Source: a virus. From it: DNA of 32,971 bases. Where the stretch lies: the UHGV virus genome UHGV-0159523. One strand, written 5' to 3'. The position numbers and the translations under genes were made by a program. Below the pieces are notes generated by a model. It worked only from the letters and a program-made list of their open reading frames with translations. It was not told where the DNA came from and searched no databases. Below, in pieces: positions 19,448 through 24,676 of the stretch (the first letter of the stretch is position 1; each line of letters begins with the position of its first letter).

Positions 19448-19465
19448 GGCTGCCAATTGGCAGCC
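19448..19465. repeat. Perfect 18-bp palindrome ggctgccaattggcagcc between the two cassette genes
   Basis: Exact reverse-complement symmetry read directly; 15 bp downstream of the 89-aa gene stop; its right half recurs in the cassette terminator at 18425-18442. Confidence 0.6.
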
Positions 19466-19963: not shown

Positions 19964-20716
19964 TTATCTCGTCACCCTTCTCAATTGTGCTTCAGCGTAA
20001 GCTTCCTCCTGCCAGCACTTTGTAACCAGTTTATCAATGACATCTGCATATCCTTTGTACCACTGATAATCCGTCAGGTCTGGTACCAGCTTCTGGACAT
20101 GAAGCCGCGCCAGTGTGGTTGGTAAACGGCTAAACCGGTTTCCATTGCAACGCCCACAAATCTTATAAACAGGCGTGCCATGAAGCCGGGTCCTTTTTTC
20201 ATCCAGGACAATACCTTTACCCTTACACCCTCTGCACGCGGTGCTGACTTCTCCCTTACCATGGCAATGCTGACATAGTTCCTTCACCCACTCTTCCTTG
20301 ATAACAGATTCCCCGCTTCTGGAGTGTTTCACCACTTCGCGCAATACATTATGAAATCCAGTACCAGCACAATGCTCACAGCGAGCCTTACTTGCCGCAG
20401 ACCTGGAATAATCAGCAAAGGCAAAATTCACAAGGTAAGGGATGATCTGTAACCGGGTTTCTTCACTCAATTTGTTCAATGTCGGGTTATCCAGTGCCAT
20501 CGCGTAATTGAACAGACCTTCAATCGCAAACTGAGGATCCTGAACACCAACTTTTGCCAGGAATAAGGCAAACCCAAGCGGTGCTTTCGACTGCACCATC
20601 CCCTGCGCAGCCATCACATCCGTAATCGTTAAACCACCTGAGCCTGTCGCCGGTGCGTCATCGCTCAATTTTGGAGATTTTGGGGAGTAATATTTTGGTA
20701 AGGCTTCAAGGTTCAT
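19964..20716 (-). CDS. Late-gene antiterminator Q-like protein, 250 aa from ATG 20716
   Basis: Cys-rich zinc-binding motifs (CEHCAGTG, CQHCHGKG, CRGCKGKG, CGRCNG); position immediately upstream of late leader/terminator and lysis genes; SD GGAGA before ATG 20714-20716. Confidence 0.7.
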   Translation of the reverse strand: MNLEALPKYYSPKSPKLSDDAPATGSGGLTITDVMAAQGMVQSKAPLGFALFLAKVGVQDPQFAIEGLFNYAMALDNPTLNKLSEETRLQIIPYLVNFAFADYSRSAASKARCEHCAGTGFHNVLREVVKHSRSGESVIKEEWVKELCQHCHGKGEVSTACRGCKGKGIVLDEKRTRLHGTPVYKICGRCNGNRFSRLPTTLARLHVQKLVPDLTDYQWYKGYADVIDKLVTKCWQEEAYAEAQLRRVTR

Positions 20717-20729
20717 GCTCGTTCTCCAC

Positions 20730-21701
20730 TTACGCCAGCACGCCAATTGCCTGCGCACGATCGATAAAACGAAATATCAGCTCCAGCTGGGAGCCATACT
20801 TCTCTTCAAATGCCACGGTATCCGCATGCAGCTCGTCGTGATGCTTTCTGCACAAAGGCAACACAAAGAGGTCATGCGCTTTTGTACCCATTCCACCCTG
20901 ACCGTGACCTATCAGGTGGTGGGGATCATCAGCAGGCTTTCCACAACATGCACACGGCTGTGTCTTAACCCAGCGGCGACGTTTTGGGCGTAACATAAAA
21001 GACTCCGGCGACTCCGGATCCACTTTCAGCGCCAGCACCTTTTTCGCCTTATCATGGATGATGCTGGTGGCAGGAATCGAAGGCACAAGGTCACTTTCCC
21101 GGGTGACAGACGGCACAACAGGCTTCGGTAATCTCAGTGCCTTACGGGCTGCACTTTCCGGTAAGGCATCCGCCAGGTCATTACGAATCAGCCACCAGCA
21201 CAGTTCCGGCATTGTCACAACGTGACTGTCATCAAAACCGAGATCCCGACGCACAACAGACAACACCCAGCGGGCACAGTTATCCGTTGCCATTGATTCC
21301 AGCCGTTCCGTGAACTGATCGCGCAGCTGGTTATCGCAGTGCCAGCACAGACGGATCGCGCCCGGCGCGTGTCGCATTGTGGTCATGTTCTCGCTGTGCC
21401 AGTCGGAATGAGGCCACTGACAGCCCTTTTCACGAAGTAACCAGCTTTCAAGACATTCCACGCCACCAGCACGACGGATCACTGCCTCATTGCAGAACAC
21501 GGCCCGAACGGCAGGATCATCCGCCAGCGGTTGTGATGCCGCGGGAACGGCACCACTGGCGAAAGATGAATAACGTTCCGGCTCAGGCTCCAGCAGGACA
21601 CGCCCCTGCATAAACAGGGGCATCAGCTCTGAACCGGGTCTGAACAATACGATCCCCATACGCGGGGCTATTTCAGTGGTCAGTAGTGCTCTCACGGTCA
21701 C
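20730..21701 (-). CDS. DUF968-family phage protein, 323 aa
   Basis: C-terminal Cys/His-rich segment CACCGKPADDPHHLIGHGQGG...CRKHHDELH; common lambdoid early-region gene. Confidence 0.55.
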   Translation of the reverse strand: MTVRALLTTEIAPRMGIVLFRPGSELMPLFMQGRVLLEPEPERYSSFASGAVPAASQPLADDPAVRAVFCNEAVIRRAGGVECLESWLLREKGCQWPHSDWHSENMTTMRHAPGAIRLCWHCDNQLRDQFTERLESMATDNCARWVLSVVRRDLGFDDSHVVTMPELCWWLIRNDLADALPESAARKALRLPKPVVPSVTRESDLVPSIPATSIIHDKAKKVLALKVDPESPESFMLRPKRRRWVKTQPCACCGKPADDPHHLIGHGQGGMGTKAHDLFVLPLCRKHHDELHADTVAFEEKYGSQLELIFRFIDRAQAIGVLA

Positions 21702-21702
21702 C

Positions 21703-22512
21703 TCAATGAACGGTATCGAGCAGCTTTAACAGCTCAGGGAATCGGGATTCGAAGAAATGCGGCTGCGTCTCACGCGGATTTGCGGGACTGGTGATGTTCT
21801 TGCCGAACATGCAGCCTTTCGCCGTCAGCGACCAGAATTTTTTGATGTTGTTAATCGCGGTACGGCTGTATCGTTCGCGCTGCTCGACGATCCCCAGCTT
21901 CGCCATCTGGTGATATGCCTGATTAGCCGTAAGGCGGATACCATACTGTTTCAGCAGTGCACTCAGCGACAGTGTCGGGCGGCTTGAGCCATCAGGCGCG
22001 TCAGCAGGAGCATCAATGGCATAGCGCGGTGCCAGATTCGGTAAGCCAACAGCCTCCTGGAGTTTCTGACAGGCCCCAAGCACTGAAGAGTTAGACAGGT
22101 TTAACTCCCTGCGCATAAAGTCCAGCAGAATCACTCCAGCCTGCATCTTGTCAGCAGCCTGCCCGGATAATTTTTCCGGTACGCTGGTTACCATATCGAA
22201 AGTACGGATCACCTTCAGATGGAATGACGGGCTGATCCACATTGCATAGGCATACACCAGTTCCTTGCAGACATAAGTTCCCCGTTCATTTCCCCCATGA
22301 ATCACACTCACCGGGTCAACACCCAAATTCTGGGTGTTGGTCAATTCATGAACAAGTTCAACACTTTGTTGGCTGGAAAGAAACTTTCCTGGCTCCTTGG
22401 TTCTGGCATTTGCACCAGATGCTACTGCTGCGCGATGCAGATCGTTCAGGCTGTAACGCCCATAAGCATCACGACGAACTTCAATACCATCAATGACCAT
22501 CAGATTATTCAT
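21703..22512 (-). CDS. KilA-N domain protein (antirepressor-like), 269 aa from ATG 22512
   Basis: N-terminal MNNLMVIDGIEVRRDAYGRYSLNDLHRAA motif typical of KilA-N; SD AAGGAG 9 nt upstream of ATG 22512. Confidence 0.7.
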   Translation of the reverse strand: MNNLMVIDGIEVRRDAYGRYSLNDLHRAAVASGANARTKEPGKFLSSQQSVELVHELTNTQNLGVDPVSVIHGGNERGTYVCKELVYAYAMWISPSFHLKVIRTFDMVTSVPEKLSGQAADKMQAGVILLDFMRRELNLSNSSVLGACQKLQEAVGLPNLAPRYAIDAPADAPDGSSRPTLSLSALLKQYGIRLTANQAYHQMAKLGIVEQRERYSRTAINNIKKFWSLTAKGCMFGKNITSPANPRETQPHFFESRFPELLKLLDTVH

Positions 22513-22531
22513 ACTTCGTTTCTCCTTTTGC

Positions 22532-22921
22532 TCAGGCGTCTGCACCCGCCGTTTTCTCGTACTTACTGATAGTGATCTCGACCTTCCCTTCCGGGATAAC
22601 CGGTCCCCACTCCACCAGCATTCTTTTCACCTGGCTGTCGTCTTCCCACACACCCGCGTGGGTCAGAACGTCAAACAGCGCCTTGTTATAGTTGTCCAGA
22701 TCGCGGATCCTGTTATCCGGAGGAAACAACACAATCTCTACTGAAGCAGGTGCCGACGTTGGTTTCGGCAGACGACGTAACTGCTCAACTATTGCTGCGC
22801 ACGCCGCGCTCTGGAATTTTCGCCCCGCCGCGCTTATCAGGCTCTTACCAGCAAACGCCCCTTTGTTGGGGTGTCGCCAGTACGTGTTCACGCTGGGCGG
22901 AAAAGGCAGGATCAGCTTCAT
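22532..22921 (-). CDS. rusA: Holliday junction resolvase RusA, 129 aa
   Basis: LPFPPSVNTYWRH...RDLDNYNKALFDVLTHAGVWEDDSQV matches RusA conserved core; ATGA overlap with upstream gene. Confidence 0.8.
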   Translation of the reverse strand: MKLILPFPPSVNTYWRHPNKGAFAGKSLISAAGRKFQSAACAAIVEQLRRLPKPTSAPASVEIVLFPPDNRIRDLDNYNKALFDVLTHAGVWEDDSQVKRMLVEWGPVIPEGKVEITISKYEKTAGADA

Positions 22922-23244
22922 ACTTTCAGGCCCCTCTCATGTAACCAGTGGGTTGCACGCAGCCTTGCGTTTTCCTCACCGGCAAGCAGTGAGCGGATAA
23001 TCCCGACCGCCTCGCTGTCGTCGTCCTTCACCGCGGTATGAAGCGTGATGCCCCGGGCCACGCCACGCTTTATCGTGATGACGCCTTTTTTCTCCAGTGC
23101 GCGAAGATGCTCCACCGCTGCATTCACTGAACGGTATCCCAGCATGGTTGCCACCTCCTGATTGGTTGGCGGGAAGCCACGTTCTTTCTGATAAGAAATC
23201 AGCATATCCAGCACCTGCTGCTGACACTGAGTTAACGTCGTCAT
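22918..23244 (-). CDS. LexA N-terminal DNA-binding domain paralog lacking the S24 peptidase domain, 108 aa
   Basis: MTTLTQCQQQVLDMLISYQKERGFPPTNQEVATMLGYRSVNAAVEHLRALEKKGVI aligns colinearly with the E. coli LexA N-terminus as I recall it; no Ser/Lys dyad region; TAATG coupling to upstream gene. Confidence 0.65.
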   Translation of the reverse strand: MTTLTQCQQQVLDMLISYQKERGFPPTNQEVATMLGYRSVNAAVEHLRALEKKGVITIKRGVARGITLHTAVKDDDSEAVGIIRSLLAGEENARLRATHWLHERGLKV

Positions 23245-23738
23245 TAAGCCCCCACGTAATTCCCTGACAGATACCATTCATCACCCGATACAGCGCGCTT
23301 GCTGCTTTTCCGTAAGCACCGCTCTCGACGCGCCAGAAAGTTGTTTCGTTCTGGCTGGGAGTGACTTTCACGGAATGCCGCCATCCACACCGTTGCAGCA
23401 CGACGGTATAAGCCCCTGGACTCCAGCTCTTCAGCCTGGCGGGTCAGGCACAAAATCACCCGGGGATCGTTAGTGCCGACATAGAAATTGCGCACAGGTC
23501 TGGTTTCACGAACAGATTGTGGTTCCGGCTCCTGCGCTCTCTCAGTCAGGCGCGGGAAATGTCTGCGTGTATCTCCTTCACAACGGTGAGCCACACGCCC
23601 ACTCTGACGTAACTTGCTTGCTGACTGCAGAACGCGCTGCCGTGAGTAACCAGCAAAAGCATCTGCAATGTCTCCGGAAGTACAGCCCGGATGGGCTTCA
23701 ATGAATTTCTGAACGTCATTCAAAAGACTCATGATCAC
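23244..23738 (-). CDS. Hypothetical early protein with PerC-like C-terminal motif, 164 aa
   Basis: ORF track; C-terminal LYRRAATVWMAAFRESH...RRERC resembles the PerC-family pattern; assignment tentative. Confidence 0.4.
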   Translation of the reverse strand: MIMSLLNDVQKFIEAHPGCTSGDIADAFAGYSRQRVLQSASKLRQSGRVAHRCEGDTRRHFPRLTERAQEPEPQSVRETRPVRNFYVGTNDPRVILCLTRQAEELESRGLYRRAATVWMAAFRESHSQPERNNFLARRERCLRKSSKRAVSGDEWYLSGNYVGA

Positions 23739-24676
23739 CCCCTGAATCCTGCCGGGATCTGGCTGTAGTCCACGTTGCCGTAACTGGCTTTGAAGTACGG
23801 GTCTTCACGTTTTTCTGTGTGCGTGCTGACGGACGGCGATAAGCGCAGGGAAAGCTCATCCCATTTTTCCCGCAACTTCGACGGGCTGAGCACGTTACGG
23901 CACCAGAACGGATCGCGGCTGACGCGGCTGTACATCTCGCAGATTTGTTTGTGAGTACGACCATCCTGCACACACATCAGGCGAATTTCGTTTGCCCATG
24001 CTGTCCAGTTCGGTTCTTTGGGACGAACCACCTCGCCGTCACATTCGGCGGCCTGCTCGTACAGGGCAATGATTTTTTTCCAGAGCCACTGTGCGCAGGT
24101 CAAATCATCCTGCGTTCCCCACTGGCGCTTTTTAGGGCTGAATACAACCGCATCAGGATGGCGAGTTAAAAAATCCTGTTCAGCCGTCTGCGTGTCCGGT
24201 TGCGAAGCGTCCGGACGAGAAGGTTTTTTATCTGACGGATCATGTTTTGATTTTACTGACGGATCCCCGCCAGATTCTGACGGGTGAAAACCCGCTTTTT
24301 TGCCAGATTTCGACGCATCAAATTTTGACGGGTCAGATTTTGATGCGTCAGATTTTGACGGGTCAGAATCTGACAGTTGAGAAAATGCCGCTGCCTGAAG
24401 CTTCGCAACGTTAAGCTGATAAACATTCGACGCATTGCGGTTACCCTGGCGACGCGCCTTACGCGTTAACCAGCCTTCTGCTTCCAGCCGTGCGATAGCC
24501 GTTCTGACGGTACTCATCCCCGCGCCAATCTGGCGGGCAATGGTTTCAATTGATGGCCAGCACACACCTTCGTCATTACTGAAATCAGCCAAGCGGGCCA
24601 TAATTGCCACGCTGGATAATTTCATGCCTGACGCTGCGCAACCATCCCATACATAGCCGGTTAATTTAGTGCTCAT
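23735..24676 (-). CDS. Replication initiator, O-like (N-terminal wHTH, repeat linker, C-terminal domain), 313 aa
   Basis: N-terminal HTH (SIETIARQIGAGMSTVRTAIARLEAEGWL); internal peptide repeats SKSDASKSDPSKFDASKSG encoded by a DNA iteron array; SD AGAGG before ATG. Confidence 0.65.
   Translation of the reverse strand: MSTKLTGYVWDGCAASGMKLSSVAIMARLADFSNDEGVCWPSIETIARQIGAGMSTVRTAIARLEAEGWLTRKARRQGNRNASNVYQLNVAKLQAAAFSQLSDSDPSKSDASKSDPSKFDASKSGKKAGFHPSESGGDPSVKSKHDPSDKKPSRPDASQPDTQTAEQDFLTRHPDAVVFSPKKRQWGTQDDLTCAQWLWKKIIALYEQAAECDGEVVRPKEPNWTAWANEIRLMCVQDGRTHKQICEMYSRVSRDPFWCRNVLSPSKLREKWDELSLRLSPSVSTHTEKREDPYFKASYGNVDYSQIPAGFRG
24226..24379. repeat. Iteron array (putative origin of replication) inside the O-like gene
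   Basis: About eight copies of a 15-bp repeat (consensus agattttgacgggtc); four perfectly tandem between 24320 and 24379. Confidence 0.6.

Follow-up and report, generated by a model that had tools for sequence, protein, structure and literature searches.

What does a phage gain from a gene that encodes the DNA-binding domain of LexA and ends before the domain through which LexA is cleaved? This question is raised by a small gene in UHGV virus genome UHGV-0159523, a stretch of 32,971 nucleotides (the window) that is an SfV-like lambdoid prophage. The gene occupies positions 22918-23244 of the minus strand, stop codon included, and encodes 108 residues according to both a program-made list of open reading frames (ORFs) and direct reading of the sequence, which agrees with its placement in an earlier annotation of the window (the original prediction). 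That prediction described the product as a LexA DNA-binding-domain paralog without the autocleavage domain, and proposed that it is either an uncleavable LexA mimic acting at SOS boxes or a dedicated phage regulator. The description holds beyond doubt, since the ORF product is a real LexA-type winged-helix protein lacking the autocleavage domain. As for its role, we favor with moderate confidence a RecA-insensitive, tail-dimerized, delayed-early DNA-binding regulator with a non-SOS operator. The basis for this reading consists of homology, fold, the missing S24 domain, purifying selection, conserved synteny, and the loss of LexA signature residues.

The N-terminal part of the protein was compared with LexA at the level of both sequence and fold. 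The Pfam model LexA_DNA_bind (PF01726) is matched end to end, over all 65 positions, with an E-value of 2.9e-19 and a score of 69 bits against a cut-off of 23.7, and BLASTP aligns the protein to Escherichia coli LexA with 39 identities in 90 positions (43%, E 8e-22). The best sequence matches in the PDB are E. coli LexA entries at E about 1e-15 (phmmer against 1lea, the N-terminal domain, E 6.9e-16). An AlphaFold2 (AF2) model based on a 28-sequence family alignment has a mean predicted local distance difference test (pLDDT) score of 82.9 and shows three helices and a two-stranded wing, with block values of 78-89 across residues 1-60 and 80 across residues 61-70. The top Foldseek match of the model is the E. 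coli LexA-DNA complex 3jso_B, with a root-mean-square deviation of 0.9 Å over 68 columns at 50% identity. The precise alignment against LexA, which the original prediction had proposed as a check, is thus in favor of the LexA identity. The parts of the gene, in window coordinates, are as follows.

22918..23244, minus strand: whole gene, stand-alone LexA-type DNA-binding protein (ORF list, Pfam, PHROG, RefSeq).
23041..23244, minus strand: residues 1-68, LexA-type winged helix-turn-helix (wHTH) with helices 6-22, 28-35, and 40-52 and wing strands 56-58 and 66-68 (AF2, Foldseek, phmmer).
23089..23130, minus strand: residues 39-52, recognition helix SVNAAVEHLRALEK (alignments, contact list of PMC3091678, residue counts).
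23026..23040, minus strand: residues 69-73, short low-confidence linker (AF2, pLDDT <50 at 71-74).
22921..23025, minus strand: residues 74-108, family-specific helical hairpin with helices 74-88 and 93-103 (AF2 pLDDT about 87, column conservation).

In LexA, the C-terminal S24 peptidase domain carries a Ser119/Lys156 dyad and doubles as the dimer interface, and cleavage occurs at Ala84-Gly85. A Pfam search gave no Peptidase_S24 match in the 108-residue protein, whose chain stops at residue 108. The TIGR00498 lexA equivalog model scores 70.8, below its cut-off of 110.95, and is aligned over model positions 1-91 only. Compared with E. coli LexA (1lea, 3jso), the protein therefore has the same winged-helix fold, the same Pfam domain, and 43-50% identity, whereas it is without S24, without the conserved Ala-Gly site, and without the residues R28 and E44 described below. 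It also has a helical tail of its own and sits in a phage operon, whereas LexA is an autoregulated SOS gene.

The family is already carried in databases. The gene is the equivalent of SfV orf42, to which it is 98% identical; PHROG 362 matches it over its full length including the tail (E 1.1e-59, residues 1-108 against profile positions 1-106 of 106); and RefSeq entry WP_000210170.1, named 'LexA family transcriptional regulator', is the identical gene in E. coli strain F9792. These entries are 98-100% identical and lie at the same site before rusA. The annotations in use ("LexA DNA binding domain protein", "LexA-like protein", and "transcriptional repressor") were assigned to the orf42 family by similarity alone, and the label 'LexA repressor and protease', which is sometimes applied, is wrong. 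An alternative 119-residue reading from a further upstream ATG is present in the ORF list; however, the 108-residue start is favored because RefSeq, the alignment to Met1 of LexA, and the homologues all agree on it.

The original prediction had the protein ending at the LexA linker. Instead, the AF2 model and the family alignment reveal that ∼38 more residues form a conserved, family-specific helical hairpin. The linker that leads into it is a stretch of varying length and sequence across the family alignment. Conserved columns within the hairpin are A79, L/I82, L/I83, R84, L86, L87, A93, R94, R96, A97, an aromatic residue at 100, L101, and G105; its hydrophobic and Ala positions rank among the best-conserved columns of the family, as do R84, R94, R96, and G105, and A97 is invariant. 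No relative was found when the tail alone was searched against the PDB and Pfam. Because LexA dimerizes via its S24 domain, which is missing here, the simplest reading of the predicted hairpin is that it supplies dimerization and would take over this role of the S24 domain. A comparable layout is found in the BlaI/MecI repressors, in which the wHTH is N-terminal and the dimer forms through a small, all-helical module at the C terminus. The resemblance is weak and at the level of fold (Foldseek E 0.064, 1okr), no sequence relationship was found, and the protein does not belong to that family.

BLAST places the tail motif LLAGE, located in the first tail helix with its Ala-Gly at residues 88-89, opposite the LexA cleavage site VAAGE. 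We considered whether LLAG/EE could be a LexA-like site that is cleavable in trans and rejected it. The Ala-Gly becomes AN, VG, RK, DD, and others in relatives, so that there is no conserved cleavage site, and the segment is predicted to be helical.

Which DNA the protein reads is the next question. The classical DNA contacts of LexA helix 3 are S39, N41, A42, E44, and E45 (PMC3091678, a secondary source). In the 108-residue protein S39, N41, A42, and E45 are kept, P40V and E44V are changed, and Asn28 stands where LexA has Arg28. Further LexA residues that it shares are H46, K53, R64, G65, and I66, while the wing tip differs from that of E. coli LexA by V59K and S60R. Residues were counted in 21 full-length LexA-type representatives and in 27 other members of the phage family. 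Arg28 is present in all 21 LexA representatives and in none of the 27 others, Glu44 in 20 of 21 and again in none of 27, and position 45 is variable in both groups. Positions 28, 40, 44, and 45 have the highest variability in the domain, with an entropy of 2.0-2.95 bits within the family. The residues that are invariant over 28 family members (Q8, G23, P26, S39, N41, K53, R64, G65, and I66) belong to the scaffold and the backbone contacts.

Enterobacterial hosts are expected to share a single SOS box. A family in which the scaffold is kept and the base-reading positions are diversified fits regulators with differing operators of their own, and not mimics of that one box. Judged from these residue patterns, the protein has probably lost the target specificity of LexA. 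With R28 and E44 gone and with base-facing positions that differ from one subfamily to the next, an operator of its own that is not an SOS box is most likely. A scan of the prophage window for CTGT-N8-ACAG boxes, which the original prediction had suggested, found no perfect box and 14 one-mismatch sites against 11.4 expected, which is chance level; alternative CTGT/ACAG spacings of 0-20 were not enriched in the window either.

These data bear directly on the proposal of a LexA mimic, in which the uncleavable protein would bind SOS boxes of the host and of other prophages after induction and re-repress SOS genes independently of RecA. The proposal is consistent with the 50% identity to the E. 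coli LexA wHTH and with the retention of S39, N41, A42, E45, H46, K53, and R64. Without S24, RecA* would be unable to inactivate the protein, which would in addition be produced just as LexA has been cleaved. A Klebsiella homologue that is located two genes downstream of a dinI homologue with a perfect SOS box hints at an SOS-related neighborhood, but this same homologue has the most diverged recognition helix of the family (SSNAVLLHL). The counts at R28 and E44, the variation of base-facing positions between subfamilies, the altered wing tip, and the lack of an SOS box in the window all argue against the mimic. The loss of DNA-contacting residues, on which the original prediction had let this proposal depend, is partial, since R28 and E44 are gone whereas S39, N41, A42, E45, K53, and R64 remain. 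Mimicry at SOS boxes is thus weakened and we consider it unlikely. It is likewise improbable that the E. coli subfamily, with helix SVNAAVEHL and wing Arg64, occupies all or some SOS boxes as a RecA-insensitive dimer despite the loss of R28 and E44. If it did, SOS functions would be re-repressed after prophage induction by a gene that is carried by ∼41% of E. coli genomes and by Stx2a and Stx2c phages; candidate targets would be sulA, umuDC, the lysis genes of colicins, and antirepressors of rival prophages that are under LexA control. The second role named in the original prediction, that of a dedicated phage regulator, is the better-supported one, given the kept scaffold and the diversified base-reading residues; the role itself is what we infer from them.

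A separate observation concerns P0191, a LexA-type protein of 209 residues that aligns through the cleavage-site and S24 region. In its recognition helix it has Val44/Thr45 in place of the near-universal Glu44 and, by this substitution, may be a LexA with non-canonical specificity.

To place the gene in its family, homologues were searched for in a 5.8-billion-sequence protein collection (twice) and by a full HMMER scan of 1.84 billion representatives. The relatives form a coherent family of 104-135 residues which keeps the same architecture down to about 40% identity, and no S24 domain was found among the close or distant relatives in the protein-collection searches. Source names place these relatives in Escherichia, Salmonella, Citrobacter, Cronobacter, Klebsiella, Enterobacter, Atlantibacter, Kosakonia, and Hafnia. 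The gene is also carried by phages SfV, SfII, SfIV, cdtI, and mEp460 and by several Stx2a and Stx2c phages. Among complete E. coli genomes, 2233 of 5426 (about 41%) contain it, in up to four copies and nearly always at ≥95% identity, with roughly 2800 copies overall. In all of the E. coli matches listed, rusA follows the gene, and the gene in front of it is either a dam-type methyltransferase or the PerC-like gene.

The ratio of nonsynonymous to synonymous substitution rates (dN/dS) is 0.12 against SfV orf42 and 0.12 against a Salmonella orthologue (dS 0.6), and the gene is under clear purifying selection. The original prediction had allowed that the ORF might be a truncated pseudogene of a longer lexA-like gene. 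This is ruled out by the lengths of the homologues, by the absence of S24 among them, and by a dN/dS of about 0.12. A remnant of a captured lexA fragment, devoid of function and passively carried, would suit a location in a mosaic region rich in dispensable genes, but the same selection signal comes close to refuting it. In addition, length and tail are kept across many genera to about 40% identity, and a copy spanning at least 80% of the gene is present in 2223 of the 2233 E. coli genomes with a match. We therefore regard a remnant as scarcely credible.

Many further phage proteins of 65-150 residues with a LexA-type fold are found in BFVD, and stand-alone LexA-domain proteins are therefore a common kind in phages. 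The orf42 family is an uncharacterized member of this kind, set apart by its helical tail. Other proteins of the collection have a different layout. P0152, P0156, and others of about 160-170 residues contain two tandem LexA_DNA_bind domains per chain (Pfam E 1.5e-33 and 3e-41, two stretches each), and such a covalent pseudo-dimer could be another way of dispensing with S24 dimerization.

The setting of the gene suggests how it is expressed. The original prediction of translational coupling beside RusA in the early-right operon is confirmed by the overlapping start and stop codons read from the sequence. The elements and genes concerned are listed below; the four genes downstream form the block 19964..22921 of the same operon.

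23244..23738, minus strand: upstream gene, PerC-family (YfdN-like) regulator (Pfam PerC E 1.8e-9, RefSeq name).
23249-23253, minus strand: GGGGG, a Shine-Dalgarno-like run 5-9 nt upstream of the start (sequence).
23242..23246, minus strand: TAATG junction, in which the stop codon of the PerC-like yfdN homologue overlaps the start codon of the gene (sequence).
22918..22921, minus strand: ATGA junction, in which the stop codon of the gene overlaps the rusA start codon (sequence).
22532-22921, minus strand: rusA (Pfam).
21703-22545, minus strand: KilA-N protein (Pfam).
20730-21701, minus strand: DUF968/HNH-like protein (Pfam).
19964-20758, minus strand: antiterminator Q (Pfam).

A promoter scan found no sigma-70-like promoter next to the gene. 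Together, the overlapping start and stop codons and the lack of a nearby promoter indicate that the gene is part of a long rightward early transcript. One promoter candidate taken from SfV, a putative dam promoter annotated inside orf40, was rejected as weak, with an altered -35 element in the window. The 1.4-kb stretch around the gene has a 99.9%-identical copy in a prophage of E. coli F9792 that adjoins tRNA-Thr and proA. That prophage contains an integrase, a CI-like S24 repressor (YmfK-like), the Cro-like YmfT, replication genes, a nin-like region, Q, lysis genes, and a terminase.

The closest functional precedent is gp6 of the Bacillus tectivirus GIL01, which was the only characterized LexA-domain-only phage protein found in a literature search. 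This 66-residue protein binds its own palindrome, which overlaps the -35 element of the late promoter P3 and differs from the host LexA box, and activates P3 (PMC6182141). Both gp6 and the 108-residue protein are phage-encoded LexA-type DNA-binding domains without a cleavage domain (PF01726 E 7.9e-14 for gp6), and both are encoded by early genes of temperate phages. They differ in that gp6 is tailless and comes from a phage of Gram-positive hosts, whereas the phage of the 108-residue protein already has a Q antiterminator. BLASTP of gp6 against the 108-residue protein gave no alignment at E ≤ 100; gp6 is closest to Bacillus LexA (44%), and the 108-residue protein to E. coli LexA. With no pairwise similarity and with the nearest LexA of each protein coming from its own host group, gp6 and the 108-residue protein appear to have been captured independently.

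Taken together, the reading that we favor would run as follows. A lambdoid (SfV-like) phage lineage would have derived a small sequence-specific DNA-binding protein from the N-terminal domain of a proteobacterial LexA, with the S24 autocleavage and dimerization domain swapped for a 35-residue helical hairpin that is probably dimerizing. With the S24 domain replaced, the protein would be insensitive to RecA. Lacking a promoter of its own, it would be expressed as part of the long early operon that runs rightward (replication genes, PerC-like gene, the gene itself, rusA, KilA-N, DUF968, and Q) and, presumably, be produced as a delayed-early product after infection or induction. It would most likely act as a phage-dedicated transcription regulator, in a role analogous to that of GIL01 gp6 that evolved apart from it.

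Several points weigh against this reading. Four of the five classical helix-3 contacts are retained in the E. coli subfamily, and residual or partial SOS-box recognition by this subfamily is possible on the basis of these residues. Late transcription in lambdoid phages is already served by Q, so that the regulated target is not obvious. A literature search found no functional or experimental study of the 108-residue protein or its family (PsrA and PsrB, which were considered there, are AraC-type regulators and irrelevant). Finally, perfect palindromes of the window and of seven related loci were surveyed as candidate operators, and nothing was found that tracks the gene.

Two palindromes were rejected in the course of this survey. 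The first, GCCCCTGTTTATGCAGGGGC, is located at 21602-21621 of the window (and in related loci at L006:6624, L008:4925, and L010 near 7618), inside the DUF968 coding sequence, where it encodes MPLFMQGR. It is a GC-rich hairpin in the 5' coding region of DUF968 whose conservation is limited to close relatives, with decay in Citrobacter and at more distant loci. The second, an ACAG-N-CTGT palindrome, lies inside the SfV and mEp390 versions of the gene; in the window copy, a synonymous change disrupts it.

The outcome of the palindrome survey would be expected if the wHTH and tail had as their partner not a specific DNA site but a protein of host or phage origin (RNA polymerase, RecA, LexA, or a repressor). 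The conserved tail without known homologue could serve this purpose as well, with R84, R94, and R96 forming an interaction surface. However, the invariant residues S39, N41, K53, R64, and G65 are best explained by DNA binding. LexA dimerizes and binds the RecA filament (PDB entry 8trg) through its C-terminal domain, and this is the domain that is missing here. Protein binding of this kind is in our view very unlikely.

Conserved gene order brings in a further alternative. Across relatives at 47-100% identity the order is replication genes, PerC-like gene, an orphan methyltransferase of varying family or none, the LexA-like gene, rusA, KilA-N, DUF968/HNH-like gene, and Q. This order recurs in most relatives examined, with KilA-N or RusA missing in a few (KilA-N in mEp390 and in a Cronobacter locus), and the replication modules and Q types differ among syntenic relatives. 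The protein could therefore be a non-transcriptional DNA-binding accessory of the recombination and DNA-processing proteins encoded beside it, namely the RusA resolvase, the KilA-N protein, the DUF968/HNH-like nuclease, and often the orphan methyltransferase, for example one that targets or modulates them on phage DNA. The order LexA-like, rusA, (KilA-N), DUF968 is very stable at 47-57% identity despite the different Q types and replication modules, and coupling to rusA translation is always present in E. coli. On the other hand, synteny in the mosaic nin region may reflect shared descent alone, and the Klebsiella relatives are without rusA. Moreover, LexA and GIL01 gp6, the two characterized LexA-type wHTH proteins considered, are both transcription factors. 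An accessory role of this type has, we believe, a small chance of being correct, and a transcription regulator with its own operator is the reading that we retain.

As it stands, a very common and already annotated nin-region gene is of little significance, given that LexA-domain proteins of the stand-alone type occur widely in phages. What keeps the gene of some interest is the presence of a LexA-derived protein under purifying selection in ∼41% of complete E. coli genomes and in Shiga-toxin and serotype-converting phages; no published test of the binding target of the 108-residue protein was found in the literature search. A role of the protein in controlling phage development would mean one more regulator in the lambdoid early operon. 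Contact with SOS boxes would connect the carriage of prophages with SOS-dependent mutagenesis, with the release of toxin, and with the competition of prophages among themselves.

Several observations were made at the same or related loci. Compared with SfV, the window lacks dam exactly and the same TAATG junction is reused, whereas in SfV the junction sequence is followed by dam. In relatives, the upstream slot is occupied by unrelated orphan methyltransferases, namely Dam (PF05869), a D12-class enzyme (PF02086), and an 802-residue C5+D12 fusion. From this comparison, the slot looks like a methyltransferase-swapping hot spot. Its positions are:

Window 23242-23246, minus strand: upstream methyltransferase slot, empty.
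L006:4351-5004, L014:3583-5991, L015:5111-5992, and L005:4826-6004: the same slot in related loci.

A deleted relative of the region is present in CPS-53 of E. coli K-12 (L016, NC_000913.3 2471544-2473246), where yfdO, yfdN, and a truncated methyltransferase, yfdM, are joined to tail-fiber remnants. CPS-53 is without the LexA-like gene, rusA, Q, and structural genes. We speculate that the loss of the slot from K-12 may be part of why the gene went unstudied.

The Klebsiella arrangement is found on contig QIXV01000008.1 (L002). A perfect SOS box, TACTGTTTATTTATACAGTA, at L002:5386-5405 overlaps the -10 region before a prophage dinI homologue, which is followed by a 96-residue ORF and then by the 130-residue LexA-domain homologue P0267 (cluster n=1017), the genes being located at L002:5425-6393. 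The same arrangement sits in widespread Klebsiella cryptic prophages, in which the 130-residue homologue may, judging from the position of the box, be under LexA control. A similar arrangement is known from the Gifsy prophages, in which LexA controls an antirepressor gene that follows a dinI homologue.

Four further features of the window were seen near the operon. The replication-initiator-like protein (HTH_36) encoded at 23735-24676 on the minus strand has a low-complexity DPSKSDASKSDPSKFDASKS segment, and iteron-like inverted repeats, GTCAGATTTTGAC...GTCAGAATCTGAC, lie within its coding DNA at 24347-24374; given these repeats, this is probably the phage origin. The PerC-family protein (YfdN-like, 164 residues) has, besides its C-terminal PerC motif, an N-terminal extension of ∼95 residues with weak similarity to MarR/BilQ-type winged helices (NCBIfam E 0.003, PHROG 1687 E 6.6e-5). 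Downstream of Q and before the lysis genes, two small ORFs flank a perfect 18-bp palindrome, GGCTGCCAATTGGCAGCC, at 19448-19465. Finally, the Q antiterminator (PF03589, 19964-20758, minus strand) contains a DnaJ-type CXXCXGXG zinc-finger segment (Pfam E 3.5e-7).

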